A DNA stretch of 64,000 nucleotides from Candidatus Parcubacteria bacterium (GTDB lineage Bacteria; Patescibacteriota; Minisyncoccia; Phycocordibacterales; JAKFXT01). This document shows positions 8,090 to 45,530 of this stretch, in pieces (position 1 is the stretch's first letter; each line of letters begins with the position of its first letter). Position numbers and translations under genes: made by a program. Location of the stretch: NCBI GenBank assembly GCA_021414235.1, contig JAIOOV010000003.1, forward strand, positions 37,560-101,559, written 5' to 3'. The notes beneath the pieces are model-generated. The model was not told where the DNA came from and searched no databases. It saw only the letters and a list, made by a program, of their open reading frames with translations.

Positions 8090-8159
8090 ACGAAAAAGTG
8101 AAGAAGATTAAGGCGACGCGTACGGAAGCCACTATACCAAGGCGGGATTGCTAAGACAA

Positions 8160-9275
8160 TTAAAGCAAAGCCTCGGCTTCTCGGATAACTTCTTTGGGGG
8201 TAACAGCTTCCGCCTGTCGGCGAGCCTCCTCCAAATTAAATACAGCAGCGTTCATGATATGAAGCATCGGCCGCTCCCGCTGCGGCACCACCACCCGATG
8301 CTTCACACCCTGCGGCGGCTGCTCATTCTCATCCATGGGACCCACGATATCTACCGTAGGGATGCCGAACGCCTCTGCGATATAGATCGGACCAGTGTCG
8401 ACACTGATGAAGAGCGAGAGTTCCCCGATGACCGCCTTCAGCTCTTCGAGCGAAAGCTTGTTTGAAAGATCAATAAGAGGAAGAGATGAGGGAAGAGCGG
8501 AGCGCATCGCCCGGACTTCCTCTGCGTCCCCCGCTCCTCCGATGAGGACGATGCGTCTGCCCGGGCGTTCTCCGAGCGCCTGAGCGACCTCCGCGAAACG
8601 CGCGCCTCCCCAGACCTTGGCCTTGTTCCCTACTCCGGGAGCGATTCCTATAAGCTTCTCGCCGCTCACCCCGGGAACCTCGAGCATGTACTTGGCATGA
8701 GTAGTCGCTTCTTCAGATACATATAGTTCTTTGCGCGTATCCTCAGAAAATATACCGAGCGGTTCAAGCAGACGCAGATATTCTCGCGGAGCGTAGGAGC
8801 CCATATGGTGCGGCGCCGTATCCACGGAACGCGCGAGGAAGCGATATGAGAGGGTCTCATACGGCGACCAGCCGTTCTCGATACGCGGCACGATGACCTG
8901 AGATACACGTGCGAAAAGAAGAGCTTGGAGCGACTCGTTGTCGGGGCCGGGCAGAATAGCTGCGTCCGGCTGTATCTTTGAAATAGACTCTATGAGAGCA
9001 GAGAGACCCGGCGGACGGACCAGATATTCATTGATGTGAGGATTCCCAGCGAGAAGTTCTTTATTCAGCGCATTCCCCATCACATACAGTGCGCATCTCG
9101 GATAACGCTCCTTGATCGCACGGAAGAGCGGCGTCGTGCAGACCATATCTCCCATCTTGGCTCCCTGGATCACCAGGATGCGCTGCGGATCCCCCGCTTT
9201 CTTTCTTCGGAAGAGGTAGACGAAGCTCGCCGCAAGAGCGAGCAGCCCATTCTGAACGCGGGTCAGGAAGATCAT
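8160..9275 (-). CDS. Glycosyltransferase family 9 (ADP-heptose:LPS heptosyltransferase-like).
   Basis: RILVIQGAKMGDMVCTTPLFRAIKERYP N-terminus and GT-B C-terminal half typical of GT9. Confidence 0.8.
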   Translation of the reverse strand: MIFLTRVQNGLLALAASFVYLFRRKKAGDPQRILVIQGAKMGDMVCTTPLFRAIKERYPRCALYVMGNALNKELLAGNPHINEYLVRPPGLSALIESISKIQPDAAILPGPDNESLQALLFARVSQVIVPRIENGWSPYETLSYRFLARSVDTAPHHMGSYAPREYLRLLEPLGIFSEDTRKELYVSEEATTHAKYMLEVPGVSGEKLIGIAPGVGNKAKVWGGARFAEVAQALGERPGRRIVLIGGAGDAEEVRAMRSALPSSLPLIDLSNKLSLEELKAVIGELSLFISVDTGPIYIAEAFGIPTVDIVGPMDENEQPPQGVKHRVVVPQRERPMLHIMNAAVFNLEEARRQAEAVTPKEVIREAEALL

Positions 9276-11098
9276 AGCGATATCTTGTACAGCTTCGCCC
9301 AGACCTGGAAAGTAAGCACAGCCCAGAGCTGATTAAGATGATACGCTTTCGCCTCAGTGTGTTCTTCGAGCATGCGTGATATCTCCGTCCAATTGAAAAG
9401 AGCAGCCGTGGGAGGATAGTAGCTCTCAGAGAGAACTTCGCGCGCAAAAGATTTAAACGGCTCTCGGCGCAGCCACTTAGCACCCGGCGAGAACCAGCCG
9501 CGCTTCGGCTCATTAAAGAGATACGCAGGGAGACGACCGCGAAACGCTTCCTTAAGAACAACCTTGGTATTCCGCAGACTGACCTTCTCAGAGAGCGGCA
9601 TGCGCGCGGAAAGCTCGATCATGTCCACATCAAGAAGCGGAGGCCTGCTCTCTACACCTGCAGACATGGACATGGAATCCGCCATAGCAAACGCCTCGTC
9701 TACGAGCCAGGTCTTACGATCAGCTTCCATGAAGGCGTCTTCGAAGTTTCGTGTGTCATGCACTAGGTGCGGAGCGAATACCTCTTTAAGATTCGGGAGC
9801 TCAATGCCAGGAGCGAGGAGTCGACGCACGGCTTCCTCCTTCTCAGCCATGAAGAGCGCGATGCGCGCAGGACCAGGAGGCGTATTCAATTTCGAGAGCG
9901 TGGGATGGAAAGACAGGAGAGAGCGGAGTACTCCTGGTACGTATTTCTGGTATCTGCTCGCCGCGAGCGAGAGACGATAGCGCTCATAGCCGCCGAAGAG
10001 TTCGTCTCCCCCGTCGCCGCCTAAAACAACAGTGGCTTTGTCTTTGGTGAACGCAGCCAGCTTGAACATCGGAAGGATAGTGGCGTTCGCTACCGGCTGA
10101 TCGAGGTGCCAAACGGCCCGCTCGAAGAGCTCTGCCGCGTCCGTAGTAGTCATCACCACTTCGTGGTGATTGGTGCCGTAGTGCGCCGCGGTGCGGCGCG
10201 CGAGATCAAAATCCGCATTGAAGCGCTCGGACTGCTCGCCCTCTCCGAGTTCGAAGCCGACAGAGAAGGTGTCTACGTTGGAGCGGATGCGCGAGACCGC
10301 ATCGAGCACCACACTCGAATCGATACCACCGGAGAGATAGATACCTATAGGACGATCCGAGACGAGCTGCATGGCGACAGAGGCATCTACCTGAGCAGCG
10401 ACTCGCCTCCTCCACTCGGCCGAAGTGAGTGAATCAGTTTTTACGCCGTTATGGACATCCCAATAGGTCTCGATGGAGAGCTTGCCATCCTTGTAGAGTG
10501 CGCGGGAACCAGCTGGCAGCTTGAAAATACCCTCGAACATTGTCTCTGGCCCCGGCGCGTAGAGGAGTCGCAGGTAGCGTCCGAAAGCTTCCATATTGAG
10601 ACGCCGCGGCAGATCGTACTCCAGGATACCCTTGATCTCGGAAGAGAAGATGAGCCCACGTTCCGTCTCCGCATAGTAGAGGGGCTTGATACCAGCATGA
10701 TCCCGCGCAAGAAAAAGCTCCTTGTTCTCCCTGTCCCAGATAGCGAGCGCGAACATTCCATTGAAACGCTCCACCGCCTTCTTGCCCCAGCGGATATAGG
10801 CTGCGAGGATGACCTCCGTGTCTCCTTCCGAACGGAAAGGATAATCCGAGAGCTCCGCTTTCAATTCTTTAAAATTATAAATCTGCCCGTTGAATACCAG
10901 CGTGTAGCGCCCGCTCGCATCCGTCATCGGCTGAGCAGAGCGCGGGGAGAGATCGATGATGGCAAGACGATTGTGTCCAAAGGAAATCCCCTCCTCAATG
11001 AACGTGTCGGTCGCATCCGGTCCCCGGTGCGCAGTGACCGCGTTCATGCGTTCTGCGAGCGCCTCATCCCTCCAAGTGAATCCGTTGATGGCGCACAT
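9272..11098 (-). CDS. asnB: Asparagine synthetase (glutamine-hydrolysing) AsnB family amidotransferase.
   Basis: MCAINGF N-terminal Cys nucleophile, SGGIDSS PP-loop, 608 aa; 4-nt overlap with the upstream GT9 (operon). Confidence 0.9.
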   Translation of the reverse strand: MCAINGFTWRDEALAERMNAVTAHRGPDATDTFIEEGISFGHNRLAIIDLSPRSAQPMTDASGRYTLVFNGQIYNFKELKAELSDYPFRSEGDTEVILAAYIRWGKKAVERFNGMFALAIWDRENKELFLARDHAGIKPLYYAETERGLIFSSEIKGILEYDLPRRLNMEAFGRYLRLLYAPGPETMFEGIFKLPAGSRALYKDGKLSIETYWDVHNGVKTDSLTSAEWRRRVAAQVDASVAMQLVSDRPIGIYLSGGIDSSVVLDAVSRIRSNVDTFSVGFELGEGEQSERFNADFDLARRTAAHYGTNHHEVVMTTTDAAELFERAVWHLDQPVANATILPMFKLAAFTKDKATVVLGGDGGDELFGGYERYRLSLAASRYQKYVPGVLRSLLSFHPTLSKLNTPPGPARIALFMAEKEEAVRRLLAPGIELPNLKEVFAPHLVHDTRNFEDAFMEADRKTWLVDEAFAMADSMSMSAGVESRPPLLDVDMIELSARMPLSEKVSLRNTKVVLKEAFRGRLPAYLFNEPKRGWFSPGAKWLRREPFKSFAREVLSESYYPPTAALFNWTEISRMLEEHTEAKAYHLNQLWAVLTFQVWAKLYKISL

Positions 11099-11100
11099 GA

Positions 11101-11760
11101 CTATTTAATACAAGAAAAAGCGTACGCTAGCACGAAGCGATCCCGGAACGGGAACCGCTTCCCGAAGAAGCGCAGAAGGAAGGCATCCTTCGCATAGGCA
11201 GCAGCGAACCAAAGCGGCTTCAGGATGCGCGGCAGAAACATCTCCACCTGCGTGTACCCAGCAACGAAAGGTCCACGAGAGGCAGGAAGGATCTCTACCT
11301 CCCGGAATCCCGCTGCAGAGAACATGCGTTCGAGCTTCTCCGCAGTGAAGCGCTGGAAATCATGCGGGTCAGGATGCACGTTCACCAAGAAAGGAACGCT
11401 ACCAATGAGGCGGCCACCCGGAGCAAGGACCCGATGCATCTCTGCGACCACCTTCTCATACTTCTCTATATGCTCGAGCAGATTGAAACAAAGAACCGTA
11501 TCAAAAGATCCGTCAGGGACGGGCATGGGAGAGGCTTCGAGATCGACCACGTAATCAGGCCGTGCTTCCTCACGGATATTGAGCGTCTTCATCGCAAGCG
11601 ACGGATCAAGCCTAAGATACCGATAATGACTCTCTTCCCGCGTCCCACCCACATCGAGCGCGCGGCCTGAGACCGTGAAGCGAGGAAGGAGGATATTGGT
11701 GAGTGCGCGGGAAGCTGACTTCCCCCGGAGCACTTCGCGGAAGACGAGAGAGAAACTCAT
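11101..11760 (-). CDS. Class I SAM-dependent methyltransferase.
   Basis: LDVGGT motif I, VLAPGGRLIGSVP post-I region. Confidence 0.75.
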   Translation of the reverse strand: MSFSLVFREVLRGKSASRALTNILLPRFTVSGRALDVGGTREESHYRYLRLDPSLAMKTLNIREEARPDYVVDLEASPMPVPDGSFDTVLCFNLLEHIEKYEKVVAEMHRVLAPGGRLIGSVPFLVNVHPDPHDFQRFTAEKLERMFSAAGFREVEILPASRGPFVAGYTQVEMFLPRILKPLWFAAAYAKDAFLLRFFGKRFPFRDRFVLAYAFSCIK

Positions 11761-12806
11761 GAGAGCAATTGTACTATGCGCGGGATGAGCCGCACGACGC
11801 TGTGATCGCGCTCGATGGAGCCGCGCAGGTGATTGCCGCTGCTCTGGCCGTTGTCCCCGAGCGCCAGGAGCTCGATCTTACCGGCCAGCTCACGGTGCCC
11901 TCCTTGCGGGAAGAAGTAGGTCTCGTCGAGCACGCCCTTGAAGCTCTCGTTTGAAGTAAGGACCGGAGTGTTGCAGGCCATAGCTTCGAGCACGGTCTTG
12001 TCGAGCGAGCCGGTCTGACTCGTATTCACGAACACATCCGCCGCTTGGTAGTACTTCACGATATCCTGGTACCCCACGCCGCCCACGAAACGCACCAAGC
12101 TCCCGAGGTCGTGTCTCTTGATGTAAGTCTTTATCTCATCGAAGTATTCCCTGTCCACGTCCGTCACCGGAAGCCCTACCACCATGAGGGTCACCGGAAG
12201 CGTCGCTCGCCCGCGGAGTTCCTGGATAGCTCGAACAAGGGTCATGATGTCTTTCACCGGAGCGATACGACTCACCGAGAGTACGCGGAACTGGCGCTCG
12301 GGCGGCGTCTCTACGCTCTTCTTCTCCGCGGGCTTGAAGTATTCGGTATCGATACCATGTCCCAGGACGTGCACCTTAGAAGAAGCGATACGGAAGCTCT
12401 CTGCTGAACCAGTGAACACCAGGTCGGTGAGTGCGAGCGCCCCGCGCAGACGCCAGTTGACCGCCTTGTGCATGTACCAGAGAGCAACGCGTTTGCGGAG
12501 CGCCTTCCAAAAGAGGCCGCCGAGAATCACGTACTCCGGATTCATGTGCACGAAGACCGCGTCGTACTTGTTGCGCTCCGCAAGGATGTATTTATAAAAC
12601 CGGAAGAGCCGCACGATGCGCCAGGTCTTCTTCTCCTTGCCAAGGGAGAGCACCTTCACGTTCTTAGGGAGAGATACCTTGCCCCGCTCCAGGCAGATGA
12701 CCGTGACAAAATCCACGGAACGCGCGAATTCCTCGAGCCAACGATGAAAGAAACCGAGGATGGGATCCTCCCGATCGACCTTCTGGGTAAGTATCAGTAA
12801 TCGCAT
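11757..12806 (-). CDS. Glycosyltransferase family 4 (GT-B).
   Basis: EAMACNTPVLTS E-x7-E region. Start moved to MRLLILTQ (residue 24) to avoid a 52-nt overlap with the next GT. Confidence 0.8.
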   Translation of the reverse strand: MRLLILTQKVDREDPILGFFHRWLEEFARSVDFVTVICLERGKVSLPKNVKVLSLGKEKKTWRIVRLFRFYKYILAERNKYDAVFVHMNPEYVILGGLFWKALRKRVALWYMHKAVNWRLRGALALTDLVFTGSAESFRIASSKVHVLGHGIDTEYFKPAEKKSVETPPERQFRVLSVSRIAPVKDIMTLVRAIQELRGRATLPVTLMVVGLPVTDVDREYFDEIKTYIKRHDLGSLVRFVGGVGYQDIVKYYQAADVFVNTSQTGSLDKTVLEAMACNTPVLTSNESFKGVLDETYFFPQGGHRELAGKIELLALGDNGQSSGNHLRGSIERDHSVVRLIPRIVQLLS

Positions 12807-12822
12807 ACGTGTAGATATACGC

Positions 12823-13947
12823 CTAAACGCCGCGCGCGCAAGCCTCTCTCCAGAGACCGACGATCGTCTCTGCATAGCTCTCTGGCGTGAGCGGCGAGTG
12901 GCGCCTTACCGCCTCCATGGCCAGCTCCGCCTTCTCTCGCATGTACTGCGGATTCTCAAGCGCAGTCTGCCAGGCACGGGCCAGCGCGCGAATGTCTCCC
13001 GGAGGAACTACGGAAGCGTTCTCCTCGGTAATCACTTCGCCCACGATGCCAACGTCGGTGGTAAGGATGGGGCAGCCCGCCTGCGCCGCTTCGATGAGGG
13101 TGAGTCCGTATCCTTCGAAAAGAGAGTTGAGCACGTACAGATCGGCCTCTTTGTAATACGCAGCGGGAGATTGCCAGCCCTCGAAGAGGACGCGCTTCTC
13201 GATCCCGAGCGTGCGCGCATGACGCTCCAGAGCCTCACGCTCTCCCCCCTCCCCCACCAAGACAAGCGCAGCCTTCTCTTCCGTACGGGAGACTTCCGCG
13301 AACGCCTCGAGAAGCCTCCGGAGATCCTTCTCCGGCTCAAGGCGGGAGACAACGAGAGAGAAAGAAGAGAAATCAGAATGCCGCTCCTTGAGATGCACCT
13401 CCTCCGTCGGAACAGAAGAGGGGTTCATTATAGGAAGCACGGTCACTTTTTTCTCCGCGAGGCCATAGCGGGAGAGGATGCTTCTCTTGATGCGCAAAGA
13501 GACGACGCGTATGGAGCGAGCCTTCGGGAGGATGAGGCTAGCAAGCGCCACGCGTACGCGGTTTAGATATGAGTGTCGGGCAAAATACGGGCTCAAGAAA
13601 TCCGTGTGCACCTGCACCTCAAGAGGGATTTTCAAGAGCATGGAGAGGATGAAGCCAGCGAAACCTGTTTCAAAAGGATCTTGTGCCGTGACGAGAGAGA
13701 ACCCTTCCTTACGGAGAGAATATCCGGCACGGGCGAGCGCGAGAGGACGGAGAAAACGGGAGCGTGCGGAAACCGCACCCAAAACCACTCGCGGAGAAAG
13801 AGCCACCTCCTTCTCCTCAGAGAGCCCGCCCGCAGAGACGAGCACTCTGATCCCTTCCGTAAGTTCGCCATACGCAATAAGGCGCGACGCGACCGCGCTC
13901 CTAATATCGAATACCCGCGGATCAGTGGAGAGCATCAGTATTTTCAT
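12823..13947 (-). CDS. Glycosyltransferase family 4.
   Basis: FEGYGLTLIEAAQAGCPILTTDVG. Confidence 0.85.
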   Translation of the reverse strand: MKILMLSTDPRVFDIRSAVASRLIAYGELTEGIRVLVSAGGLSEEKEVALSPRVVLGAVSARSRFLRPLALARAGYSLRKEGFSLVTAQDPFETGFAGFILSMLLKIPLEVQVHTDFLSPYFARHSYLNRVRVALASLILPKARSIRVVSLRIKRSILSRYGLAEKKVTVLPIMNPSSVPTEEVHLKERHSDFSSFSLVVSRLEPEKDLRRLLEAFAEVSRTEEKAALVLVGEGGEREALERHARTLGIEKRVLFEGWQSPAAYYKEADLYVLNSLFEGYGLTLIEAAQAGCPILTTDVGIVGEVITEENASVVPPGDIRALARAWQTALENPQYMREKAELAMEAVRRHSPLTPESYAETIVGLWREACARGV

Positions 13948-15056
13948 AGGGTCTTGAGTTCGCTCACTAACCTCTCCACCAACTCGCTTTCGTCGAATGC
14001 TGAGAGCCTCTCCTTGGCATTCCGCGCGAGCTTCCCTGCAAGGTCATGGTCCTTCAGCACCTCTTTAGCTCCCTCAAGGAGCGCAGTGCGATCGTCATAC
14101 GGCACCAGGAGCCCGCTCTCGCGATGAGTGATGAGCTCAGGATTCCCGCCCACGTTCGTGGTCAGGATGGGCGTCTCCATAGCCATGACCTCTACGAGCT
14201 GATGAGAAAAGCCTTCATAAGAAGTATTGAGCATGAAGAGGTCCGCCGCGCGTACATAATTGAAGACGACCGGCTGTGGCAAGCGGCCGAGGAGGGAAAC
14301 CTTGTCTCCGAGATGCGCCGAGCGGATCTTCTTGTCGAGCGCTCTCCGCTCAGGACCATCCCCGATGATGAGGAGGCGTACGTCCGGGAAGAAGCGCTCG
14401 AGCGCAGGTACAAGCTCGGTAAGCGTAGCGAAGCCCTTCCAAGGGACGAGCCTGCCTACGGAGACGATGATGGTACCCTCAAGGCCTAAGCGCTCCCGCA
14501 GTGCGGCCTTCTCTTCGATTCCGCTCGGCAGGGCATATGAATTGTAGATGACCGCGATACGGGAAGAGGGGACGCCCCACGTTTCCACGATCCGTTTGAG
14601 ATATTCACTCGGCACAATCACCCGATGCGCAGCGCGCACCACTCGGAACTGCAGCTTCCGAAGGAAGATGAGATACGGATTCCACTTCCAGGAAAAGACC
14701 GGAAAAGCATCAAGTGTCTCCGTCACCTTAAACCTCTGCACACCCTGCTCCCAGACATGGTCTCCCGGCACGCGCACGAAGAATCTCTTGCGCAAGAAGA
14801 GATTAGCGACATAGGCAGGCCAGCCCACGCTCATGGTGTCTTGTGCGTAGATGACGTCAGCAGAGAATCCCGCCGCAAGGAGGTGGATGAAATAGATGAT
14901 ATGCCGGATGACCGGAGGGAAATGCCGCACTCTCCCGAAGGAAGCTACAGAGACGGCGATCCCCCTCTTAGGGAGCTCCCGGAGGAGCATGGCGCTGTAG
15001 GTAGCGGGACCTCCGATATCAGGAGGAAAGAGTCCGGTGGCGATGAGCACCCGCAT
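13944..15056 (-). CDS. Glycosyltransferase family 4.
   Basis: EGFSHQLVEVMAMETPILTTNVGG; ATGA overlap with the neighbour. Confidence 0.85.
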   Translation of the reverse strand: MRVLIATGLFPPDIGGPATYSAMLLRELPKRGIAVSVASFGRVRHFPPVIRHIIYFIHLLAAGFSADVIYAQDTMSVGWPAYVANLFLRKRFFVRVPGDHVWEQGVQRFKVTETLDAFPVFSWKWNPYLIFLRKLQFRVVRAAHRVIVPSEYLKRIVETWGVPSSRIAVIYNSYALPSGIEEKAALRERLGLEGTIIVSVGRLVPWKGFATLTELVPALERFFPDVRLLIIGDGPERRALDKKIRSAHLGDKVSLLGRLPQPVVFNYVRAADLFMLNTSYEGFSHQLVEVMAMETPILTTNVGGNPELITHRESGLLVPYDDRTALLEGAKEVLKDHDLAGKLARNAKERLSAFDESELVERLVSELKTL

Positions 15057-15077
15057 AGTTTTTTGATTATGACACGC

Positions 15078-16280
15078 CTAAGAAAGCCTGTCGAAGACTT
15101 CCTCTTTCATCCTCGCCGCGATGAGATCCCAGTCATACTTCTCGGCGGCAGCGCGAGCGTTCTTGCGGATACGCTCGGTCATCTCCCTATCCCCTTCGTA
15201 GAGGTGCACCGCGCGGACAATGCTCGGGACATCCTTACGCTCCACCGCTCTCCCTGTAGGTTCTGCCCCGGCATCTTTCTCGGGATCAAACAGGAAATCG
15301 GAGATACCGCCCACCTGAGTAGCGATGATAGGAACACCTGCAGCCATCGCTTCGAGGAAAGAGATACCCAAGCCCTCTGAGAGAGAAGGACGGATGAAGA
15401 TACTGCCCAGCTTCAAGAATGGAGCGACATCCTTGTGAGCGAGAGCACCGGCGAATCTGACACGCTCCTCTACACCGAGCGAGCGAGCCAGTTCTTCGAG
15501 CTCTGCACGGAGAGGACCGTCGCCAGCGATGACAAAAATTACCTCAGGAAGCTCCGGCATCGCACGGATCACATATTCAACGCCGTTCTTAGGAACAAGA
15601 CGCGAAGTGGTCACCAGGATAGTGCCCTGCTCCGGAAGCTTCAGATACTCGCGAAGAGCCGCGGTCTCTTTCGCGTCCACTTCACTAAGTACCCTGAGAT
15701 CAACTCCGTTCGGTACGACCACCGGTTCTCCTTTGAAGCCAAGAGACTTGGAGAGACCTGCGAGATAGCGTGAGATCGCCTGTACCGCGCGAGCGCGCTT
15801 GAAGGCGGAGCGGATGAGCCAGACAAAGGGACGGATACGCGCGCGCTTGAACATATGCTCTACACTGTCTCCGTCCTGGAGAGTAATGAGGAGCGGTACG
15901 CGGAAAAGCATCGAGGCCAAAGATGCTCCGATGGCGTTGTATGACATGACCGCCCAGAGAAAAGCCGGACGTTCTTTCATGATGAGCCGGCACGCCTTGA
16001 AGAAAGAGAGCGGCGGATAGAACACCTTAGTGAGATACCAGGGCAAACGAAGGAGGTCCGAAGGAGCCGGGTTTCGCTTGGCGAAGCCGACCCGGTGAAT
16101 GCGGATATTTCCCTTCTCTTCGACGCGCGGGGAATTCCCGTCGAGAAGAGCGGTGATGAGGTCGAATTGATAATCAGGGAGTTTTGAAGTGATCTCCCTG
16201 ATAGCCACCTCCGCTCCTCCCCAGAACGGATCGTAGGAAAGGGAGAAGGCGATGACTCGGCGCGACTTAGTATCGGACAT
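15078..16280 (-). CDS. Glycosyltransferase family 4.
   Basis: EGLGISFLEAMAAGVPIIATQVGG. Confidence 0.85.
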   Translation of the reverse strand: MSDTKSRRVIAFSLSYDPFWGGAEVAIREITSKLPDYQFDLITALLDGNSPRVEEKGNIRIHRVGFAKRNPAPSDLLRLPWYLTKVFYPPLSFFKACRLIMKERPAFLWAVMSYNAIGASLASMLFRVPLLITLQDGDSVEHMFKRARIRPFVWLIRSAFKRARAVQAISRYLAGLSKSLGFKGEPVVVPNGVDLRVLSEVDAKETAALREYLKLPEQGTILVTTSRLVPKNGVEYVIRAMPELPEVIFVIAGDGPLRAELEELARSLGVEERVRFAGALAHKDVAPFLKLGSIFIRPSLSEGLGISFLEAMAAGVPIIATQVGGISDFLFDPEKDAGAEPTGRAVERKDVPSIVRAVHLYEGDREMTERIRKNARAAAEKYDWDLIAARMKEEVFDRLS

Positions 16281-16307: not shown

Positions 16308-17747
16308 TTAGTACAGACCTTCAATTTCTTGCCTCCCCGCCCGTCCCAGCCAGAAGACACCGAGCAGAGTAGAGCCGAGAAGCGCTCCTAAGAGATAGAA
16401 CCACTTATACTCCCCCAAGTGCGATGAGGCAGCAGTCGTCGTCGGAAGAGATGCGGCGGCCACAGCCGCTACAACAGGAGAAGAGCGTTCGGGCACAGAA
16501 ACCCTGGTAGGAGCCTCCGGAGAGATCTTCGGCGCAGACCGCTGCGTAGCAACCGAAGAAACAACAACAGAGGAAGGAGCTGGAGTAGGAACAACGGAGA
16601 TAATGCCCTCTGCAGTGCTCGTGAGAGCGGGAGTCCCGTTTGGATAGCGAAGTTCTGCAGAAGGAGTGAAAGGAAGTGAGGTCACCCCTTCGGGGAAACG
16701 GACACTCTTCTTCGCGAGAAGGAAACTATCTTTCGGAAGAGTATACAACTTCCCTCCCGAGAGGAACTGCCAATACGAGAGGTCCACTTCCTCGCTTCCC
16801 CGGTTCTCAATCTCTAGGTACCCTCCGAGCGAATCCCGCCCGCTCCGCAGAGAGAGGTCCGCAGTGGCCACTGTTACGATGAGCTTGTCAGAGTTCGAGA
16901 ACTCTCCAGAAGAGACATCGAGGGTGGCAACGTAACTGCCGGGATAGTGGTAGGTATGGAGGACATGCTTCCCTTCAGCGTACGCTCCGTCCCCGAAGTT
17001 CCAGAGATAGCGGGCATTCTGGAGCGGCTTCTTATCAATCCCGAGCGCCTCTCCTATGAACTCCTCCGGAGTGCCTACGGTTACCGCTCTGTCATCCCCT
17101 GCATAGGAATAGATCTGCGGCTTAGTAGGCCATTTGGAAGAGCTGCCCGAGACAGGGGCGCTCGATTGGGTTACTGATGGAGTAGTCGAGGAAGTCTCTG
17201 TGGAAGTATCGGCAGAGGAAGATTCTGTGGAACTACTCGAGCTTCCTGCGGAAGATGAAGAGAGAGCGGATCCAGGCGTCGGGAGCGCTGCGATCCAGCT
17301 TCCCTCTGACTTTTGCAAACTCTTGCCATCACCTGCCGCACCCATCTCTGAGGAATAGGTGAACTGATCAATATCAAGGAGAGCAGTGTCCTTCAGTACG
17401 AGCGTCTCTCCAGTATTAGAAAGGGAGAAAGAACTATCGAAGATAGTTCCTGAGAACGACGGATTATCCGTCAGGAACTTAGCGGGGTTATCCGCAATAA
17501 TGGCGACACCTCCCGCAGCAAGCATCGCGTCCCCCTGGGAGAGGGTCAGAGCGTGGTTGGTCTCGGCTTCACGGAAGCGATAGTCGGAGACGTCTATAGC
17601 TGAGCTCCCGCTATTGCGTATCTCCACCCACTCCCGCCCACTATCACCCCCGGTCTCGAGGTCGTACATAACCTCGCTGAACTCTACCTGCGCGGAGGCA
17701 GAGAGTGGGAGAGCTATGGCGATGATCAGCGAAATTCGCGTGAACAT
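16308..17747 (-). CDS. Cell-surface protein: signal peptide, lamin-tail domain (LTD), Ser/Thr-rich linker, PKD-like domain, second LTD, C-terminal TM anchor.
   Basis: MFTRISLIIAIALPLSASA signal; LTD signature FSEVMYD...GREWVEIRNSGSSAIDVSDYRF and GGYLEIENRGSEEVDLSYWQF; PKD-like GDGAYAEGKHVLHTYHYPGSYVATLDVS; C-terminal WFYLLGALLGSTLLGVFWLGRAG. Start set at residue 23 of the track ORF. Confidence 0.7.
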   Translation of the reverse strand: MFTRISLIIAIALPLSASAQVEFSEVMYDLETGGDSGREWVEIRNSGSSAIDVSDYRFREAETNHALTLSQGDAMLAAGGVAIIADNPAKFLTDNPSFSGTIFDSSFSLSNTGETLVLKDTALLDIDQFTYSSEMGAAGDGKSLQKSEGSWIAALPTPGSALSSSSAGSSSSSTESSSADTSTETSSTTPSVTQSSAPVSGSSSKWPTKPQIYSYAGDDRAVTVGTPEEFIGEALGIDKKPLQNARYLWNFGDGAYAEGKHVLHTYHYPGSYVATLDVSSGEFSNSDKLIVTVATADLSLRSGRDSLGGYLEIENRGSEEVDLSYWQFLSGGKLYTLPKDSFLLAKKSVRFPEGVTSLPFTPSAELRYPNGTPALTSTAEGIISVVPTPAPSSVVVSSVATQRSAPKISPEAPTRVSVPERSSPVVAAVAAASLPTTTAASSHLGEYKWFYLLGALLGSTLLGVFWLGRAGRQEIEGLY

Positions 17748-17766
17748 AGACCGCGCCGCTTCGAAA

Positions 17767-19782
17767 CTATTCGAGCAGGCGCTTGAGTTCGTCTTCGGGT
17801 ACTTCGCGTACATGCGAAGCCTTGGGTCTTGGGGCAGGACGCTCAGCGGCTTGATTCGACTCAGGAGGATCTTCCCTTCTCTCTTCCTTCGGAAGCGGAT
17901 TAGGGGGAACAGGAGTCGCTTTCGGAGCAGAAGCTAGGCCGCTTGGATTCTGTTTCTTGAGGGCCTCCTGGAGCGCAGCATGGAGGAGCTCTTTGTTGGC
18001 GGTCTTGCCGCCGCGGACTTCCCCTTTCGGCTGGGGAGGTTTCCTGAGGCTTTCGTTCTGGGAAGGCTCGGATGAACGACTCGGGGCCGTTTTAGTCACA
18101 GGAGGACGCGGGGCTTGAGGCGCAGGCGTCTGGCTCTCTGACCTCGGAGGAGACGAGTCGCGTGGCGGTCTCGGCATCTCCGGCGGACGAACGACGGAGG
18201 GTTTCTCTACGGGAGGTCGATGAGCGGGTGCCGCAGCGGGAGGCACTTTGGGAATAGACGGTATGGAAGAAGCGTCTTCCTTTACCACAGAAGCAAGCAC
18301 CGCACGAAGGCCAGTGAGATGCTGCTTGGATTCAAAATTCTCGCGCTCTGCTTCGCGCACCAGCGCGGACGGAACGCGAGGGGCGTCTTCCCTCACAGAA
18401 GGCGGACGAGGCGTAGCTATAGGAGTCGGACGCGGAGCCGAGGTGGAAGCCGAAGGACCAGCAGCCTCTTTCGGCTTGAGGCTCGCCACCACCGCAGACG
18501 ACTGGGTCTGTTCAGCGATACTCACCTCCACCTGTGCACGCGGCTTAGCATAGACCATGCGCGAATTAGCGATGACACTATCCCTGAAAGAAAGCGCGGG
18601 AGCGGGTATCGGCGGCATGGTAGTGGCAGAAAAAGGCGTAGAGCTGACTCCGTCGATCATGAGCTTAAGATATATCTGGCGTATCCCTAGGTTCACGATG
18701 TCTTCGGCCAGGAAGTGTGGAGCGAACTCCTTCTCGAAGAGCTCTGCATCGATTGCCCCCACGCGGAAGGCGATCAGGGTACCGACGTTGCCGATGACTG
18801 CGGCACGCACTTCTTCCGACATCTGCTCCACGTACTGATGGGCGATGGTCAGATTCAACTTATACTTGCGCGCCTCCGAGAGGATGTCTGCGAAGGACTC
18901 GTTGGCGAAGGACTGGAATTCGTCCACGTAGAGATAGAAATTCGGGAGCTTAGCGAGCTTGTCTGCCGGCACATCCGCGCGGCTCATGGCCGCGAGATAT
19001 ATCTTGGTAATGAGCATGCTACCGAGGAGATTGGCATTGCTCTCCCCCACCTTGCCCTTAGAGAGGTTGATGATGAGGATCTTCTTCTCATCCATCATCT
19101 TACGGATATCAAAGGTGGAATTCTCCTGACCCACGATATTGCGGATGAGCGGATTAGAGGTGAACTGTCCCACTTTGTTCTGGATGGCAGGGGTCGCCTC
19201 CGCTGCGAACTTGTCCGTATACTTGGCGAACTCATCCACCCAGAAGGATTTGGTTCCGGGATCCTTCACCGACTCCACCACCTTGTTGCGGAACGCTTTG
19301 TCCGTGAGCATCTTGTTGATACCCATCATGGTGGCGCCGGGGAATTCAAGAAGAGCCAGCACCGTGTTCTGGAGGATGTACTCCATACGCGCAGACCAGG
19401 CATCCTCCCAGATCTTGTGGAAGGCACTCATGAGACCGGAGACCACTAAATGACGACGATCCGCACCGATATCCTCGATGACGTTGAAGCCGATGGGGTA
19501 CTCCATGTCGAAGGGCGCGAAATACAAAACATCCTTCACGCGATCTTCCGGTATGTAATCGAGGAGCTTCTCCGCAGTGCCGCCGTGCGGGTCGATGAAG
19601 GCGAGACCATCCCCATTCTGGATGTCCTGGATTGCCATGTTCTCGAGCAGGGTCGATTTACCCATGCCCGTCTTGCCGATGACGTAGACGTGCTTGGTAC
19701 GGTCCACCGCCTTGATGCCGAAGGGCACCTTCTTATTGCGCGTGTCGGTCAGGCCGAAATAGGTGATGCGATTGTCGTCCAT
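17767..19782 (-). CDS. Soluble VirD4/TraG/TrwB-like (type IV coupling protein family) P-loop ATPase with a ~260-aa proline-rich disordered C-terminal tail.
   Basis: Walker A IGKTGMGKST, Walker B LYVDEFQSF, TraG-D_C-like block KYKLNLTIAHQYVEQM...IGNVGTLIAFRVG. No N-terminal TM helices. Tail PRPTPIATPRPPSVREDAPRVP... Confidence 0.65.
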   Translation of the reverse strand: MDDNRITYFGLTDTRNKKVPFGIKAVDRTKHVYVIGKTGMGKSTLLENMAIQDIQNGDGLAFIDPHGGTAEKLLDYIPEDRVKDVLYFAPFDMEYPIGFNVIEDIGADRRHLVVSGLMSAFHKIWEDAWSARMEYILQNTVLALLEFPGATMMGINKMLTDKAFRNKVVESVKDPGTKSFWVDEFAKYTDKFAAEATPAIQNKVGQFTSNPLIRNIVGQENSTFDIRKMMDEKKILIINLSKGKVGESNANLLGSMLITKIYLAAMSRADVPADKLAKLPNFYLYVDEFQSFANESFADILSEARKYKLNLTIAHQYVEQMSEEVRAAVIGNVGTLIAFRVGAIDAELFEKEFAPHFLAEDIVNLGIRQIYLKLMIDGVSSTPFSATTMPPIPAPALSFRDSVIANSRMVYAKPRAQVEVSIAEQTQSSAVVASLKPKEAAGPSASTSAPRPTPIATPRPPSVREDAPRVPSALVREAERENFESKQHLTGLRAVLASVVKEDASSIPSIPKVPPAAAPAHRPPVEKPSVVRPPEMPRPPRDSSPPRSESQTPAPQAPRPPVTKTAPSRSSEPSQNESLRKPPQPKGEVRGGKTANKELLHAALQEALKKQNPSGLASAPKATPVPPNPLPKEERREDPPESNQAAERPAPRPKASHVREVPEDELKRLLE

Positions 19783-19818: not shown

Positions 19819-19846
19819 CGGGACCCCACTTTTCAGCGGGGTCCCT
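19819..19846 (-). terminator. Terminator hairpin.
   Basis: GGGACCCC-acttttcagc-GGGGTCCC preceded on the plus strand by an A-run (U-run on the minus strand). Confidence 0.5.
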
Positions 19847-19851
19847 TCTGA

Positions 19852-20052
19852 TCATCTTAATTTCCACCGGTTGTGGGTACGATCGTACTGTTTGACCATC
19901 TCTCGGTAGACGGGCTCCATCTGAGCAAGGCCCGGCGAGTAGCCGACAAGCGGCTTTCCACTCTCCAACACCTCTATCATTTCGCCCACATGGCGGGGAT
20001 CCATGCGTCCGACGTAGCCTCCCCAGATAGCTTGGAGGGCTTCGAGCGGCAA
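19852..20052 (-). CDS. Hypothetical small soluble protein (66 aa).
   Basis: ORF track; flanked by the terminator; no recognisable motifs. Confidence 0.35.
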   Translation of the reverse strand: MPLEALQAIWGGYVGRMDPRHVGEMIEVLESGKPLVGYSPGLAQMEPVYREMVKQYDRTHNRWKLR

Positions 20053-20134: not shown

Positions 20135-21355
20135 TTACTTCTCTAAAACCTGCCGCAGACTCGTGTATTTATTCGCCGCATCCCAGAAGATCCAGGACGT
20201 AAGCCCTGCGTCATACGTCGCCTGTATCTGCGCCTTCACCATCTCCGGAGTGTAGGGTACCGGGTAATCGAAGCTTTGGAGCCAGGGGCGCATCTTCGTA
20301 CGATCGTATGAAGGCTTAGCGTAGAGCTGCGGCGAAGTCGAAGCGATTAAGGTATGAGTGAGGGCTGCCACAATAGTCGTAGTGCCAGCCGCGCGGTCCG
20401 CTGCTCTCTTCATGGAAAACTGCACGATGTTGTAGGCATTAGCATTCACGTTCTTGTAGCCGTTGAAGCCTGTGGGATAGTGCGAGGGATAGACCATCGG
20501 ATAGATGTAGTCGAAGTACGGCAGCGCGCGCTCCAAAACCTGGCCGATGTTGAGATCATCCACATTAGTGGCGGTCATGCCGAAGAGATCCGCGGAGAGG
20601 ACTGCGCCCGTCGGGCGGAGCTTCTCACTGAGATATTTGAAAAACTCCTCGAGCGCCTCTGGCTTGCTCTTACCCTTGCTCCAAGTGTAATCCGCCTCCG
20701 CCATGGGGCCGTCGGAGGGGAAGCGTACGTAATCGAAATTGAGCTCGTCGAAGCCGAGCTCGTAGGAAATCTTGCCGAGCTCCACTACGTGATCCCAGTA
20801 CGGACGAGCACCGACATCCACGAAGGCGAGCCCCTTGTTGTCCTTCCAGACTCCCCCGCTCTTCTTCTGTACCGCCTGCTCCGGATACTGCGAAGTGTAG
20901 TAGGGGTTCTGGAACGTGGTAATGCGACCAATGACGAAGATGCCTTTCTCATGGAGCGAAGCGATGAACTCCTTCATATCCTTGGCGCCACAGGCGTCGG
21001 AGACGGAATCCTTCAATAGCGGATTGTCCGTAGGAAAGGAGATCTTGCCGGTGAAATCGCGGATATCGATGATGATCGCGTTAAGCTCTGTATCTTCCAC
21101 TAGCTTCACCAGGCCGTTGCGGATGGATGGAGTACCAGAAACACACTGGCTCATGTAGATGGCCTTGAGAGGTTCCGGAGCAGGTAGATGCTTGGCGGCA
21201 GGAAGAGTCGGCTTTAGAGGAGTCGAGCTTGCTACGGATACTTCAGCTGCAGCCGCCGGAGCATTCTCGTAGGTAATAGGGGTGAGATATGGAAAAGCAG
21301 AGACACCCGCAAGGAGGAGAAGAGCGGGTAAAGCGATGATCGGAAGAAATCGCAT
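20135..21355 (-). CDS. Secreted TIM-barrel glycoside-hydrolase-like protein (GHL/DUF4015-type family).
   Basis: Signal peptide MRFLPIIALPALLLLAGVSA; NAIIIDIRDFTGKISF, GIFVIGRITTFQNPYY blocks. Confidence 0.55.
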   Translation of the reverse strand: MRFLPIIALPALLLLAGVSAFPYLTPITYENAPAAAAEVSVASSTPLKPTLPAAKHLPAPEPLKAIYMSQCVSGTPSIRNGLVKLVEDTELNAIIIDIRDFTGKISFPTDNPLLKDSVSDACGAKDMKEFIASLHEKGIFVIGRITTFQNPYYTSQYPEQAVQKKSGGVWKDNKGLAFVDVGARPYWDHVVELGKISYELGFDELNFDYVRFPSDGPMAEADYTWSKGKSKPEALEEFFKYLSEKLRPTGAVLSADLFGMTATNVDDLNIGQVLERALPYFDYIYPMVYPSHYPTGFNGYKNVNANAYNIVQFSMKRAADRAAGTTTIVAALTHTLIASTSPQLYAKPSYDRTKMRPWLQSFDYPVPYTPEMVKAQIQATYDAGLTSWIFWDAANKYTSLRQVLEK

Positions 21356-21358
21356 GAC

Positions 21359-21616
21359 TTACGCTTCCGAAGACGGATGGAGAGGAGCCGACTGATTACT
21401 CTGGGAAGATCCGCTGAACTCCTTGCGAGAACGACGTACGATGATGGGCTTCCCTGGCACGTGCTTCTTCTTGGGTACGCCCGAGTAGTAGCTCGCAGAA
21501 GCGATTCCCGCGCCGAGGATGAAATACAGAGGGGTCTTCCAGGAACCCGGAAGCCCTAGGAACGGCATGATGGCCACCAAGACGCCGAGCGTAGTAACAA
21601 GCTGTCTATACATCAC
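21359..21616 (-). CDS. Small membrane protein (85 aa), hypothetical.
   Basis: Two predicted TM helices. Confidence 0.4.
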   Translation of the reverse strand: MMYRQLVTTLGVLVAIMPFLGLPGSWKTPLYFILGAGIASASYYSGVPKKKHVPGKPIIVRRSRKEFSGSSQSNQSAPLHPSSEA

Positions 21617-27777: not shown

Positions 27778-28851
27778 TCAAGCCGACCATTTGGAAAATG
27801 AGCTGACAATGGTTCCGTATACCGGCAAGGAGGGCAGCCACGTACCAGGGAGCTGTACAGGAGAGGAGGTGTAATTGGCATTTCCAAAGCCTAGCTTGCC
27901 ATTCAACCCATGCCCCCAAAGCCACAATGAACCATCGGCTTTTAAAGCAGATGTATGAAAATTCGCTGCAAAAACAGAAACCCAGGTGCCCGCAAGCTGC
28001 ACTGGAGAAGAACGGTCAATAGTATCCCCGAGCCCCAAGCGACCACTCGCACCAGTGCCCCAGATCCACAGAGAACCATCGTCTTTAATGGAAGCTGTGT
28101 GATTTGCTCCAGCGGCCACCATACTCCACGAGCCAGATATCTGCACCGGAGAAGAACGGTCAGCAGTATCAGCAAGACCGAGCTTCCCAAGCGCTCCAGC
28201 TCCCCAGACCCACAGAGAGTTATCAGGTCTTAAGGCAGCACCGAACGCGCCGCCAAGTTCTACGATTTTCCATGTTCCAGCGAGCTGCGCTGGAGAGGAG
28301 CGATTCAAAGTATTTCCAAGACCCTGTCTCGCGTTAGTACCCGCACCCCACACCCACAACGTTCCGTCCGATCTCACACTTGAGCCGAAGGCGATGCCAA
28401 GAGATACGCTTTTCCAAGTCCCCGCGATCTGCACCGGAGAAGAGTGGTCTATTATGACCCCAAGACCGTGTCGTCCGCTTGTGCCATTACCCCATCCCCA
28501 GAGCGAGCCGTCTGGCTTCAGCGCGATTGAATGGGTGTTACCAAGAGAAGCGGCACTCCATGTACCAGTGATCTGCGTGGGAGAGGAGCGATCAAGAGTA
28601 TCTCCAAGACCGTTCCTCCCGTTGGCAGCAGCCCCCCATAGCCACATGGAAGCATCTGGTCGAAAACCGATGGAGTGAGCGTTACCGAGCGTTATCGCGC
28701 TCCAAGTGCCCGCAAGTTGCACTGGAGAGGAGCGGTCGGCCGTATCTCCAAGACCCATCCGGCCACTGGAACCCGCGCCCCATATAAAAAGATTGGGACC
28801 GATATCCTTAGCGGCAGCCTGAGAATTGAAGGACAACCGATCCGACAGCAT
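27778..28851 (-). CDS. RCC1/BLIP-II-type seven-bladed beta-propeller repeat protein.
   Basis: Seven copies of LW(V/L)WGxxxxGxLGLGDTxDRSSPVQ(I/L)AGTW; no evident signal peptide. Confidence 0.8.
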   Translation of the reverse strand: MLSDRLSFNSQAAAKDIGPNLFIWGAGSSGRMGLGDTADRSSPVQLAGTWSAITLGNAHSIGFRPDASMWLWGAAANGRNGLGDTLDRSSPTQITGTWSAASLGNTHSIALKPDGSLWGWGNGTSGRHGLGVIIDHSSPVQIAGTWKSVSLGIAFGSSVRSDGTLWVWGAGTNARQGLGNTLNRSSPAQLAGTWKIVELGGAFGAALRPDNSLWVWGAGALGKLGLADTADRSSPVQISGSWSMVAAGANHTASIKDDGSLWIWGTGASGRLGLGDTIDRSSPVQLAGTWVSVFAANFHTSALKADGSLWLWGHGLNGKLGFGNANYTSSPVQLPGTWLPSLPVYGTIVSSFSKWSA

Positions 28852-29330: not shown

Positions 29331-29405
29331 TGGTGCGAGTGGAAGGAATCGGACCTTCGACCTTTTCATTATCAGTGAAATGCTCTACCACTGAGCTACA
29401 CTCGC
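29331..29405 (-). tRNA. tRNA-Ile(GAT) with encoded CCA.
   Basis: GCGAGUG-UA-GCUC-AGUGGUAGA-GC-A-UUUCA-CUGAUAA-UGAAA-AGGUC-GAAGG-UCCGAUU-CCUUC-CACUCGC-A-CCA. The T-loop UCCGAUU is slightly non-canonical. Confidence 0.88.
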
Positions 29406-31646: not shown

Positions 31647-31794
31647 CGAGTATTACTATCCTTTCTTTTGTTCCGTTCTAACCGTCCTTTCCCGGTACGG
31701 TGTCGGTCGCTCCAATTTAAGGTTTAAGAGCGATTACCTACTTCTTGCGAAGTATCGGCCGATCAGTCCTAGGCTTGCGCCCGGACATTTCAAT

Positions 31795-41784: not shown

Positions 41785-41815
41785 ACGATCTAAAATGAGT
41801 CATTGAATGCTTTAA

Positions 41816-42209: not shown

Positions 42210-45530
<3,321 letters not shown>

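Follow-up and report, generated by a model that had tools for sequence, protein, structure and literature searches.

Type IV coupling proteins (T4CPs) are known to bind partners by C-terminal peptides, the TraD tail with TraM being one example, and systems of the FtsK/SpoIIIE and Streptomyces TraB type combine a membrane-anchored hexameric motor with a DNA-recognition HTH element. For Patescibacteria, passages of Quinonero-Coronel et al. 2025 (PMC12102498) count 5,713 T4CP homologues in 2,918 of 3,035 genomes, more genomes than the 2,417 in which VirB4 was found, and place 148 of the 5,713 near virB4. The same passages report that the fused homologue of S. epibionticum is non-essential and the T4SS essential, and the authors leave exaptation of orphan T4CP homologues possible. 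Here, we describe a P-loop ATPase gene from a 64,000-nucleotide stretch of Parcubacteria DNA (the window), together with the surface-protein gene that follows it, which encodes lamin-tail (LTD) and PKD domains. As far as the passages describe that family, the ATPase almost certainly belongs with its orphan VirD4-type homologues (PMC12102498).

Both open reading frames are present on the minus strand (as are all features given below), adjacent and co-oriented, where an earlier note made from the sequence alone had placed them. The gene for the T4CP-like (VirD4/TrwB-type) ATPase (17767..19782; 671 aa) is transcribed first and that for the LTD-PKD-LTD protein (16308..17747; 479 aa, its likely start being M23 of the listed reading frame) second, with 19 nt between the ATPase stop and the LTD ATG. 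These are genuine genes and not chance reading frames, since the ATPase has more than 8,000 homologues. A terminator-like GC hairpin with a T-run, followed by a TATACT box, lies close 5' of the ATPase start (19820..19845) and suggests a transcription unit of its own, headed by the ATPase. The two genes are co-transcribable, and the pair recurs in relatives. As locus context, envelope-glycan genes follow the LTD gene with tight spacing and the same orientation (5930..16280; four GT4 genes, a methyltransferase, AsnB, GT9, and a Wzy/O-antigen-ligase-TPR protein) and possibly belong to the same operon; on the other side lies a gene for a DUF4015 putative glycosyl hydrolase (20135..21355), the upstream neighbor kept in this lineage (one to three genes upstream in most of 80 loci).

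The ATPase domain (aa 1 to 425; 18508..19782) was delimited by an AF2 model and its fold matches (pLDDT, 84 when modeled alone and >90 in the full-length model) and consists of an N-terminal β-hairpin, a RecA-like core, and an all-helical insertion (about aa 107 to 231). The P-loop ATPase without a TM segment that the earlier note had described is borne out: Walker A (GKTGMGKST, aa 36 to 44; 19651..19677) and Walker B (YLYVDEFQ, aa 283 to 290; 18913..18936) are both intact, as in P-loop domains of the FtsK-HerA superfamily, residues G36, G39, G41, K42, D287, and E288 are invariant across 62 homologues, and no TM-like segment was detected (maximum 19-residue hydropathy, 1.39 [KD19]; P-loop from residue 36). 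Curated models of the coupling-protein family give a mixed answer: TrwB_AAD_bind (PF10412; 28.3 bits versus a threshold of 20.5) and T4SS-DNA_transf (PF02534; 25.8 versus 20.1) pass, and TraG-D_C (PF12696) falls just under its threshold (21.7 versus 22). The DUF87/HerA model also passes (29.0 versus 23.2), and the NCBIfam TraD/VirD4 family models all miss their cutoffs (37 to 50 bits versus 250 to 647). In relatives with 60 to 64% identity, all three coupling-protein Pfam models pass, TrwB_AAD_bind with an E value of 4.5e-18 and TraG-D_C now above its threshold. The coupling-protein models (Pfam and NCBIfam) cover aa 25 to 342. Similarity to NCBIfam CedD is weak for the window ATPase (2.9e-6) and reaches 1e-13 for relatives encoded in the split form described below. 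TrwB was the only relative of solved structure reached by sequence search, and the model has the all-α insertion in the nucleotide-binding domain and the TrwB-like overall fold expected of T4CPs; its fold matches were TrwB, DotL, Cagβ, VirB4, and DptH, a comparison that leaves VirD4, VirB4, and DptH undistinguished. The ATPase is a member of the FtsK-HerA superfamily, in its VirD4/VirB4 branch, and coupling-protein models are its best matches by sequence. The domain is conserved beyond SecA in Parcubacteria (71 to 79% identity across the group; at the same loci compared with the window proteins, 71 to 75% for the ATPase domain, 65% for SecA, and 41 to 47% for MurB), and the gene belongs to the near-universal core that is conserved by vertical descent.

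The remaining 246 residues (aa 426 to 671; 17770..18507) form a tail that is disordered by AF2 and by composition (pLDDT, about 45 to 55 except in three short helices). The proline richness singled out earlier holds for the window (19.5% Pro, no Cys) but is not conserved, since orthologue tails (115 to 304 aa) range from 3 to 21% Pro, with more in higher-GC loci. The tail carries two short conserved motifs. The mid-tail motif LTGLRAVLASVV (family consensus, LSSLKEALASVL; core LxxLRxALxxV; 18283..18318) coincides with a predicted helix at residues 487 to 500 and outscores all shuffled tails in 73 of 80 orthologues; the terminal peptide REVPEDELKRLLE (family consensus, KEVPEDVLRKILKV; core EVPEDVLRKLL; 17770..17808) coincides with a predicted helix at residues 663 to 670 (pLDDT, about 84) and does so in 68 of 80. 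ATPases of other clades end in different C-terminal peptides.

For the second protein, Pfam and hydropathy agree with the earlier description of a secreted, C-terminally anchored protein with two LTDs around a PKD domain and a Ser/Thr-rich linker. A signal peptide-like N terminus (MFTRISLIIAIALPLSASAQ; 17688..17747; signal-like over aa 1 to 23) leads into the first LTD (aa 16 to 132; 17352..17702), the Ser/Thr-rich linker (aa 163 to 204; 17136..17261), the PKD domain with its WNFGDG core (aa 213 to 292; 16872..17111), a second LTD-like domain with approximate boundaries (about aa 296 to 400; 16548..16862), and a TM anchor (aa 449 to 468) with the short cytoplasmic tail RAGRQEIEGLY (16311..16403), a degenerate version of the family ending [YF]-x-I-[IVT]-E. 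Pfam LTD (PF00932) matches in two stretches with 71.3 bits (versus 34.3), and PKD_4 (PF18911; 44.4 versus 27) and PKD (PF00801; 36.0 versus 23.5) both score above their curated cutoffs; the PKD and second LTD assignments draw on alignment as well.

In many Parcubacteria, the ATPase and LTD genes close a module of four genes, ordered as a sigma70-region-4 plus HARE-HTH protein, a single-TM DUF8128 protein, an ATPase with a zinc finger tail, and an LTD-PKD-LTD protein. This order was seen at loci L098/99, L124, L137/143, and L142, and the full module was also present at L166, L167, L168, and L170, which were located via DUF8128 alone; L169 has the HTH and DUF8128 genes without the ATPase. In Saccharibacteria and Microgenomates, DUF8128 and ATPase are fused in one polypeptide encoded after topA and an HTH gene (L161, L162, L163, and L165). 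The tail of the split-form ATPases bears a CxxC...CxxH zinc finger, which is gone in the window's lineage, where the terminal peptide differs as well. The HTH and DUF8128 genes are absent from the window and from loci L001 to L080 (tblastn with both queries), so that the window holds the ATPase-LTD half and not four adjacent co-oriented genes, here set between the DUF4015 gene and the GT4 glycan cluster. We conclude that the window pair is the half that this lineage has kept of the conserved module. The word "soluble," applied earlier to the ATPase, fits the window protein, which lacks a TM segment, but leaves out relatives in which an N-terminal TM segment and DUF8128 anchor are fused to the ATPase or encoded by the preceding gene.

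Our preferred reading, to which we assign a probability of roughly 0.4, is that the ATPase is a membrane-tethered hexameric motor that acts on DNA and is encoded apart from T4SS genes. By analogy with its structural relatives, it would be a hexameric ATP-driven translocase, held at the membrane in trans and not by a TM domain of its own. A DUF8128 protein encoded at another locus, the cytoplasmic end of the LTD protein, or both would anchor it, with the conserved tail peptides as putative docking elements. The substrate would most likely be DNA or nucleoprotein, with the HTH protein supplying DNA recognition; DNA-related hints in the module are the HARE-HTH domain, sigma region 4, the adjacency to topA, and the tail zinc finger. 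The HTH protein resembles RNA polymerase-associated factors (sigma region 4, δ-like HARE-HTH) and could also be a transcription factor that merely adjoins DUF8128. The motor and its partners would form a membrane-associated unit of their own, not encoded with a VirB4-type T4SS, and the LTD-PKD-LTD protein, where its gene is retained, would act outside the cell as an optional partner in surface or ligand binding. DNA uptake or release and surface-protein translocation, put forward in the earlier note, would be candidate functions. Several points count against this reading: the module has no polytopic channel protein, the fused homologue of S. epibionticum is reported as non-essential (PMC12102498), the fold comparison is ambiguous as described above, and, as set out below, most close ATPase orthologues are without an LTD neighbor and gene adjacency weighs little in CPR genomes.

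It is possible, though we doubt it, that the ATPase is instead the true coupling protein of a Patescibacteria monoderm-type T4SS (VirB4/VirB6/VirB8/VirB2-like) encoded elsewhere, recruiting substrates to a VirB-type channel next to an incidental LTD gene. Its homology to T4CPs would fit, and so would partner binding by C-terminal peptides, already familiar from that family. T4CP genes often lie apart from virB4, and VirB4 is encoded in most of the genomes counted, but the passages cited above also have T4CP-like genes in more genomes than VirB4, few of them near virB4, and a non-essential S. epibionticum homologue beside an essential T4SS (PMC12102498). No VirB4, other T4SS component, relaxase, or integrase was detected among about 40 open reading frames of the window (Pfam; several frames without any match), in agreement with the earlier note, and neither T4SS genes, VirB4 included, nor a relaxase were found in the related module loci with gene annotation. 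The ATPase family, moreover, keeps conserved partners of its own (HTH, DUF8128, and LTD proteins).

That the ATPase and LTD genes are functionally unlinked, their order being inherited and the ATPase having an unrelated cytoplasmic housekeeping role, we consider unlikely. Adjacency alone is weak evidence of a link because CPR genomes retain long ancestral gene-order blocks, and the unrelated RsmI-type methylase and Mur ligases are as syntenic at these loci as the pair. The synteny on which the earlier note relied proved asymmetric: of 60 informative metagenome loci seeded with LTD-PKD homologues, about 58 have the ATPase directly upstream, and an LTD-PKD homologue lies directly 3' of the ATPase in 4 of 5 loci reached independently via DUF8128, but only 19 of 68 species-level loci seeded with the ATPase have an LTD homologue. 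The LTD gene is thus nearly always with the ATPase, and most orthologous ATPase loci (about 70%) are without it. Against a mere inheritance of order, the adjacency survives both the change of upstream context (DUF4015 versus HTH-DUF8128) and gene fission; in the 19 loci, the LTD homologue is always downstream of the ATPase and never elsewhere within ±8 kb; the ATPase stop and LTD start often overlap or abut; and the terminal peptide type of the ATPase covaries with the cytoplasmic tail type of the LTD protein (23:7 versus 1:5, counts that are not phylogenetically independent).

As the first gene of a possible operon that also comprises the LTD gene and the GT4/Wzy cluster, the ATPase might drive the export or assembly of the Ser/Thr-rich LTD protein or of a glycan, or their secretion coupled to glycosylation, in loose analogy to the dedicated ATPases for glycosylated adhesins; we hold such a role in envelope biogenesis to be quite improbable. 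It would suit the Ser/Thr-rich linker, the DUF4015-ATPase-GT4 order kept in most of 80 loci, the GT4 genes found behind the LTD genes of split-form modules as well, and the tight spacing of the next gene behind the ATPase whatever its kind (median gap 3' of the ATPase stop, 1 nt to an LTD start and 17 nt to other genes). The fused Saccharibacteria and Microgenomates orthologues, however, adjoin topA and HTH genes with neither GT4 nor DUF4015; the LTD protein has a predicted signal peptide of the ordinary Sec type, and SecA/SecDF are present. To our knowledge, glycan export by a T4CP-type ATPase is without precedent.

A part in an anti-phage defense system of the HerA, DptH, or MADS-mad8 type is highly improbable: the ATPase does match mad8 (1e-16, PADLOC models), but it is the near-universal, vertically inherited gene described above, its base composition is that of the flanking DNA, other defense components were not found nearby, the two neighbors scanned (the LTD and DUF4015 proteins) match no PADLOC model, and it has neither the co-occurring system genes nor the island-like patchiness of MADS (mad8) or DptH.

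Beyond the tethered motor that we prefer, the four proteins may conceivably make up a new device, specific to CPR bacteria, that spans the envelope and translocates DNA or nucleoprotein without a VirB-type channel, an extension that we consider unlikely. The HTH adaptor would pick the DNA, the T4CP-like hexamer would be tethered by its C-terminal peptides to a ring of single-TM DUF8128, and the LTD-PKD-LTD protein would serve as an extracellular receptor or contact element. If so, ultra-small epibionts would take DNA from host cells or deliver it to them by this device, and the window would hold a derived, "unbundled" version of it.

Of the systems already described, type IV coupling proteins (R388 TrwB, VirD4, TraD/TraG, DotL, and Cagβ) differ from the window ATPase in having an N-terminal TM domain; the window gene also has no T4SS, relaxase, or oriT around it, is part of the chromosomal core instead of a mobile element, and belongs to a family with HTH, DUF8128, and LTD-PKD partners. 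VirB4 would be expected at about 800 aa with its N-terminal domain, which is missing here, and its models (TIGR00929 and CagE_TrbE_VirB) fail, TIGR00929 with 16.5 bits versus a cutoff of 643. The C-domain of DptH (DndH) is a fold relative, but the window ATPase has no dnd/dpt neighbors. It likewise differs from HerA (DUF87) helicases/translocases: it has no HAS-barrel domain, since the β-hairpin alone precedes the P-loop in the model; its HerA fold scores are below those of VirD4 and VirB4; and the NurA, Sir2, or other effector partner of HerA-NurA, defense HerA, and MADS mad8 is missing. The 4TM, α, β (motor), and γ architecture of FtsK/SpoIIIE is not present. DNA translocators made of a single membrane protein (FtsK/SpoIIIE and Streptomyces TraB) and the Ced DNA importer of archaea would be functional analogues of the proposed mechanism. 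The LTD protein recalls bacterial LTD surface proteins such as the extracellular ExeM nuclease, whose N-terminal LTD has a counterpart here in a secreted, membrane-anchored protein (NCBIfam ExeM matches via the LTD, 3e-7), but it lacks a nuclease or other catalytic domain and is set apart by its LTD-PKD-LTD-TM architecture, conserved short cytoplasmic ending, and fixed place 3' of the ATPase. DUF8128 (PF26449) goes unmentioned in the searchable papers, as does LTD together with Patescibacteria, and the passages of PMC12102498 considered here contain no DUF8128 anchor, gene fission, HTH or LTD-PKD partners, clade-specific C-terminal peptides, or extreme ATPase conservation. Orphan Patescibacteria T4CP homologues were already published in 2025. 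What appears to be unreported is the module, together with its gene fission and the peptides of the ATPase tail, and through the module the role of a protein found in nearly all CPR bacteria becomes open to testing.

The ATPase gene (19782-17767, minus strand; 671 aa) lies upstream of the gene for the LTD-PKD-LTD protein (17747-16308, minus strand; 479 aa; 17747 being its most plausible start), with 19 nt between the ATPase stop and the likely LTD start. The earlier note had described the pair accurately, both ORFs being present and on the minus strand; its order of transcription is corrected here, with the ATPase first. The catalytic motifs of the ATPase are intact (Walker A, GKTGMGKST, aa 36-44; Walker B, YLYVDEFQ, aa 283-290), TM-like segments are absent (maximum 19-residue hydropathy, 1.39), and the C-terminal tail comprises 246 aa with 19.5% proline and no cysteine. 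Its partner consists, in order, of a signal-like N-terminus, an LTD, an S/T-rich linker (aa 163-204), a PKD domain, a second LTD and a C-terminal TM segment (aa 449-468), and scored 71.3 bits against the Pfam LTD model, in two stretches. The ATPase start is closely preceded by a TATACT box and a strong terminator-like hairpin (19845-19820), so the pair probably opens a transcription unit. This unit may extend into genes for four GT4 proteins, a methyltransferase, AsnB, GT9 and a Wzy-type ligase, which run in the same direction as the pair with short gaps between them.

The 352-nt gap between the DUF4015 and ATPase genes holds a 66-aa ORF (19852-20052, minus strand) that ends just before the hairpin, and immediately upstream of DUF4015 lies an 85-aa membrane protein (21359-21616, minus strand), kept in 33 related loci (cluster s85); neither had a Pfam match. 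In ~13 of 80 related loci (L073:5849-6328, for example, and in L016, L022, L024, L052, L061 and L070), type IV pilin-like genes (~150 aa, N-terminal KGFTLIELLVVIAIIGIL) separate DUF4015 from the ATPase or lie just upstream; the window has none at this position.

The window comes from the chromosome of a Parcubacteria/Paceibacteria (CPR) bacterium, and the surrounding genes serve housekeeping and envelope functions (SecA, MurB, Mur ligases, SecDF, FtsW, FtsK, RecA and RNR). A scan of ~40 window ORFs, a few of which lacked any Pfam match, turned up no VirB4, relaxase or integrase. The window has a complete FtsK gene of its own (54689-56902), which rules out the ATPase as an FtsK replacement. The rRNA genes are unlinked, with 16S (31793-33289) and 5S/23S (41815-45536) ~8.5 kb apart and separated by SecDF, an epimerase, a sugar transferase and FtsW; tRNA-Ile-GAT (29331-29405) lies outside the rRNA operon. 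The 23S rRNA gene (42216-45534, minus strand) exceeds the Rfam model by ~400 nt and contains a tRNA-like element (44176-44246; Rfam tRNA, 42.3 bits against a gathering threshold of 29, E = 7e-7, with this region searched alone), reported by ARAGORN as tRNA-??? with a 2-nt anticodon; the element may belong to an intervening sequence or act as a processing signal. Also encoded are two RCC1-repeat proteins (27778-28851 and 58337-59791, both minus strand) and a 1,166-aa protein (49678-53178, minus strand) whose sole Pfam match is a peptidoglycan-binding domain; the 1,068-aa ORF mirroring it on the opposite strand (49675-52881) is presumably spurious.

Pfam gave weak full-domain matches above threshold for the ATPase to TrwB_AAD_bind, T4SS-DNA_transf and DUF87/HerA, with TraG-D_C slightly under threshold, and NCBIfam gave TraD and VirD4-like matches far under the family cut-offs. 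TrwB was the sole solved relative that sequence searches detected, whether or not a family profile was used; running the family alignment as a profile against the PDB added no other. Relatives 60 to 64% identical are clearer coupling proteins (TrwB_AAD_bind, 4.5e-18; TraG-D_C, 28 to 30 bits against a threshold of 22), and more distant ones of ~1,200 aa (P0206, P0228 and P0244) have two tandem ATPase domains behind an N-terminal region. An AF2 model of aa 1-425 (pLDDT 84, pTM 0.87; domain above 90 with a deeper alignment) placed DotL, Cagbeta, HerA and TrwB at the top of a Foldseek search (E = 4e-9 to 1e-7), which did not separate VirD4 from VirB4 or DptH. From these sequence-model and fold matches, the ATPase falls within the FtsK-HerA superfamily, in its VirD4/VirB4 branch; within that branch sequence comparison favours VirD4, and the fold does not discriminate. 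The coupling-protein family proposed in the earlier note thus holds over a HerA or FtsK assignment, with HerA-type models close behind.

More than 8,000 database proteins matched the ATPase, the best 120 being 76 to 100% identical across the ATPase domain. In 80 species-level genome loci its identity was 71 to 79%, versus 65% for SecA, 48 to 52% for DUF4015, 41 to 47% for MurB, 29 to 38% for the GT4s and ~33% for the LTD protein, a contrast somewhat inflated by the choice of loci by ATPase similarity. In a 2025 study, 5,713 VirD4-type homologues were counted in 2,918 of 3,035 Patescibacteria genomes (~96%), only 148 of them near virB4; the copy in S. epibionticum was reported to be non-essential, and the authors did not rule out exaptation (PMC12102498). 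Orphan coupling-protein homologues are therefore already published as a class. It is unlikely, in our estimate, though the likeliest of the alternatives considered, that the ATPase is the true coupling protein of a distant T4SS; its family placement is what such a protein would have, but the gene is independent of T4SS loci.

The pairing with the LTD protein was followed from both sides. Starting from the ATPase, 68 genome loci extended 2.5 kb or more beyond the gene, and 19 of these had an LTD-PKD homologue, always downstream of the ATPase and never elsewhere within 8 kb on either side; most loci without it have a GT4 gene directly after the ATPase. Starting from the LTD protein, with a six-sequence alignment as query, 80 metagenome loci were retrieved, and the ATPase was immediately upstream in ~58 of ~60 with enough upstream sequence (exceptions, L128 and L148). 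The linkage is therefore real but asymmetric, and the synteny in relatives anticipated by the earlier note stands from LTD to ATPase. The LTD protein is an optional companion which, when present, has one fixed slot. Between the ATPase stop and the LTD start the median distance is 1 nt, and the two genes often overlap; gaps to other following genes are likewise short (median, 17 nt).

In relatives the pair is part of a larger module. Among 1.84 billion representative sequences searched, relatives 47 to 57% identical carry a 300- to 460-aa N-terminal extension consisting of a TM segment and then PF26449/DUF8128, a fused form typical of Saccharibacteria, Microgenomates, Berkelbacteria, WWE3 and Dojkabacteria; Southlakia epibionticum and Nanosynbacter, among the cultivable Saccharibacteria, have it. 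In four contigs (L161, L162, L163 and L165) the fused gene is preceded by topA and a ~345-aa sigma-70 region 4/HARE-HTH protein. A split form recurs in several independent metagenome contigs from the LTD search (L098/99, L124, L137/143 and L142), in the order HTH protein, separate TM+DUF8128 ORF (378 to 421 aa), soluble ATPase, LTD-PKD protein; the tail of its ATPases carries a treble-clef zinc finger (CxxC...CxxH) and finishes with KPGDxIKF. Stand-alone DUF8128 proteins (~390 aa) are abundant in Parcubacteria, and four of five contexts seeded with DUF8128 (L166, L167, L168 and L170) read HTH-DUF8128-ATPase-LTD-PKD-LTD and then GT4 genes, the fifth (L169) having leuS-HTH-DUF8128, followed by neither an ATPase nor an LTD gene. 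With TM+DUF8128 fused to or preceding the ATPase in relatives, the earlier note's emphasis on a soluble protein needs correcting. No DUF8128 or HTH gene was found by tblastn in the 64-kb window or in loci L001-L080; what the window has is a reduced version, with the ATPase-LTD half beside DUF4015 and a glycan cluster. The ~345-aa protein joins an RpoD-like sigma-70 region 4 to an RNAP-delta-like HARE-HTH (e.g., L161:6881-7954, L165:6976-8001 and L167:5918-6943) and, in 13 of 14 contexts from Saccharibacteria, Microgenomates and Parcubacteria, is encoded immediately before DUF8128; the two stay together in L169, where the ATPase is missing.

That the ATPase and LTD genes have no functional link is improbable. 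Gene order is generally conserved in CPR genomes, which also counts against the translocase reading set out below, but the ATPase-LTD adjacency has persisted through a new upstream context as well as a gene fission, which argues for more than passive block synteny. A role for the ATPase in envelope or surface-protein export would suit the LTD partner and the neighbouring glycan genes, and we consider it more doubtful still: DUF4015-ATPase-GT4 synteny was downgraded as proof of glycan function, RsmI and Mur ligases being equally syntenic, and that context is missing from fused and split-form loci. Membership in a defence system (mad8/HerA/DptH) was rejected from distribution and context and merits next to no credence.

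Most LTD-PKD-LTD orthologues end in a TM segment, a basic stretch and an acidic/hydrophobic cytoplasmic peptide, [YF]-x-I-[IVT]-E (YEIIE, FTIIED and YEITEVEE, for example; L011, L041, L068, L083-L120 and others). The window ending (16311-16343) is degenerate, QEIEGLY, and LTD proteins of split-form modules mostly lack the peptide.

The earlier note had stressed the Pro-rich tail of the ATPase. Among orthologues the tail varies in length (115 to 304 aa) and proline content (3 to 21%, higher in higher-GC loci), which rules out proline richness as a functional feature; the conserved part is short motifs, one mid-tail (consensus, LSSLKEALASVL; window, LTGLRAVLASVV, aa 489-500) and one terminal (consensus, KEVPEDVLRKILKV; window, REVPEDELKRLLE, aa 659-671). 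The motif score exceeded the best of any shuffled tail in 73 of 80 orthologues for the mid-tail motif and 68 of 80 for the terminal one, the latter an undercount, since the 14-residue window overlooked several in which the motif is the very C-terminus. In the full-length AF2 model the tail is disordered, with helices exactly at both motifs (pLDDT ~84 at the terminal one). Elsewhere in the family, C-terminal peptides take the form [IL]LKPG[DQE]xI[KR][FL] in one clade and F[EP]EP[IL][IL] in many long forms. Which terminal peptide an ATPase has goes together with whether the LTD protein ends in [YF]-x-I-[IVT]-E (23:7 versus 1:5, counts that are not phylogenetically independent), a further hint of an ATPase-LTD link.

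We put at roughly 40% a reading in which the ATPase, like its structural relatives, would form an ATP-driven hexamer that works as a translocase, would be anchored to the membrane in trans, its tail peptides binding DUF8128 and/or the LTD cytoplasmic tail, and would act on DNA or nucleoprotein, with the LTD-PKD-LTD protein as an optional extracellular element. The substrate is suggested by the HTH partner, the adjacency of topA, the zinc finger and the DNA-translocating T4CP, Ced and FtsK relatives. Against this, the HTH protein resembles an RNA-polymerase-associated factor, and the module contains no obvious channel protein.

The ATPase is here more conserved than SecA, yet the published account ends at an orphan, possibly exapted. 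The four-gene module, the DUF8128 anchor states, the clade-specific terminal peptides and the fixed LTD-PKD-LTD partner appear to be new, being absent from searchable papers. Our analysis adds conserved partners (a DNA-binding HTH protein, the DUF8128 membrane anchor and the LTD-PKD surface protein), an anchor that is fused, split off or unlinked depending on CPR class, and a distinct docking-type C-terminal peptide per clade, which together make the role experimentally approachable. Were the machine to move DNA, it would bear on nucleic-acid exchange or scavenging by reduced-genome epibionts.

With a terminal peptide that differs by clade, joined to a globular NTPase through a linker of variable length and make-up, the ATPase would have the architecture of a partner-docking protein. 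FtsZ is built alike, from a globular NTPase, a disordered linker and a C-terminal peptide, and the tail of TraD with TraM offers an analogy for docking through a terminal peptide.
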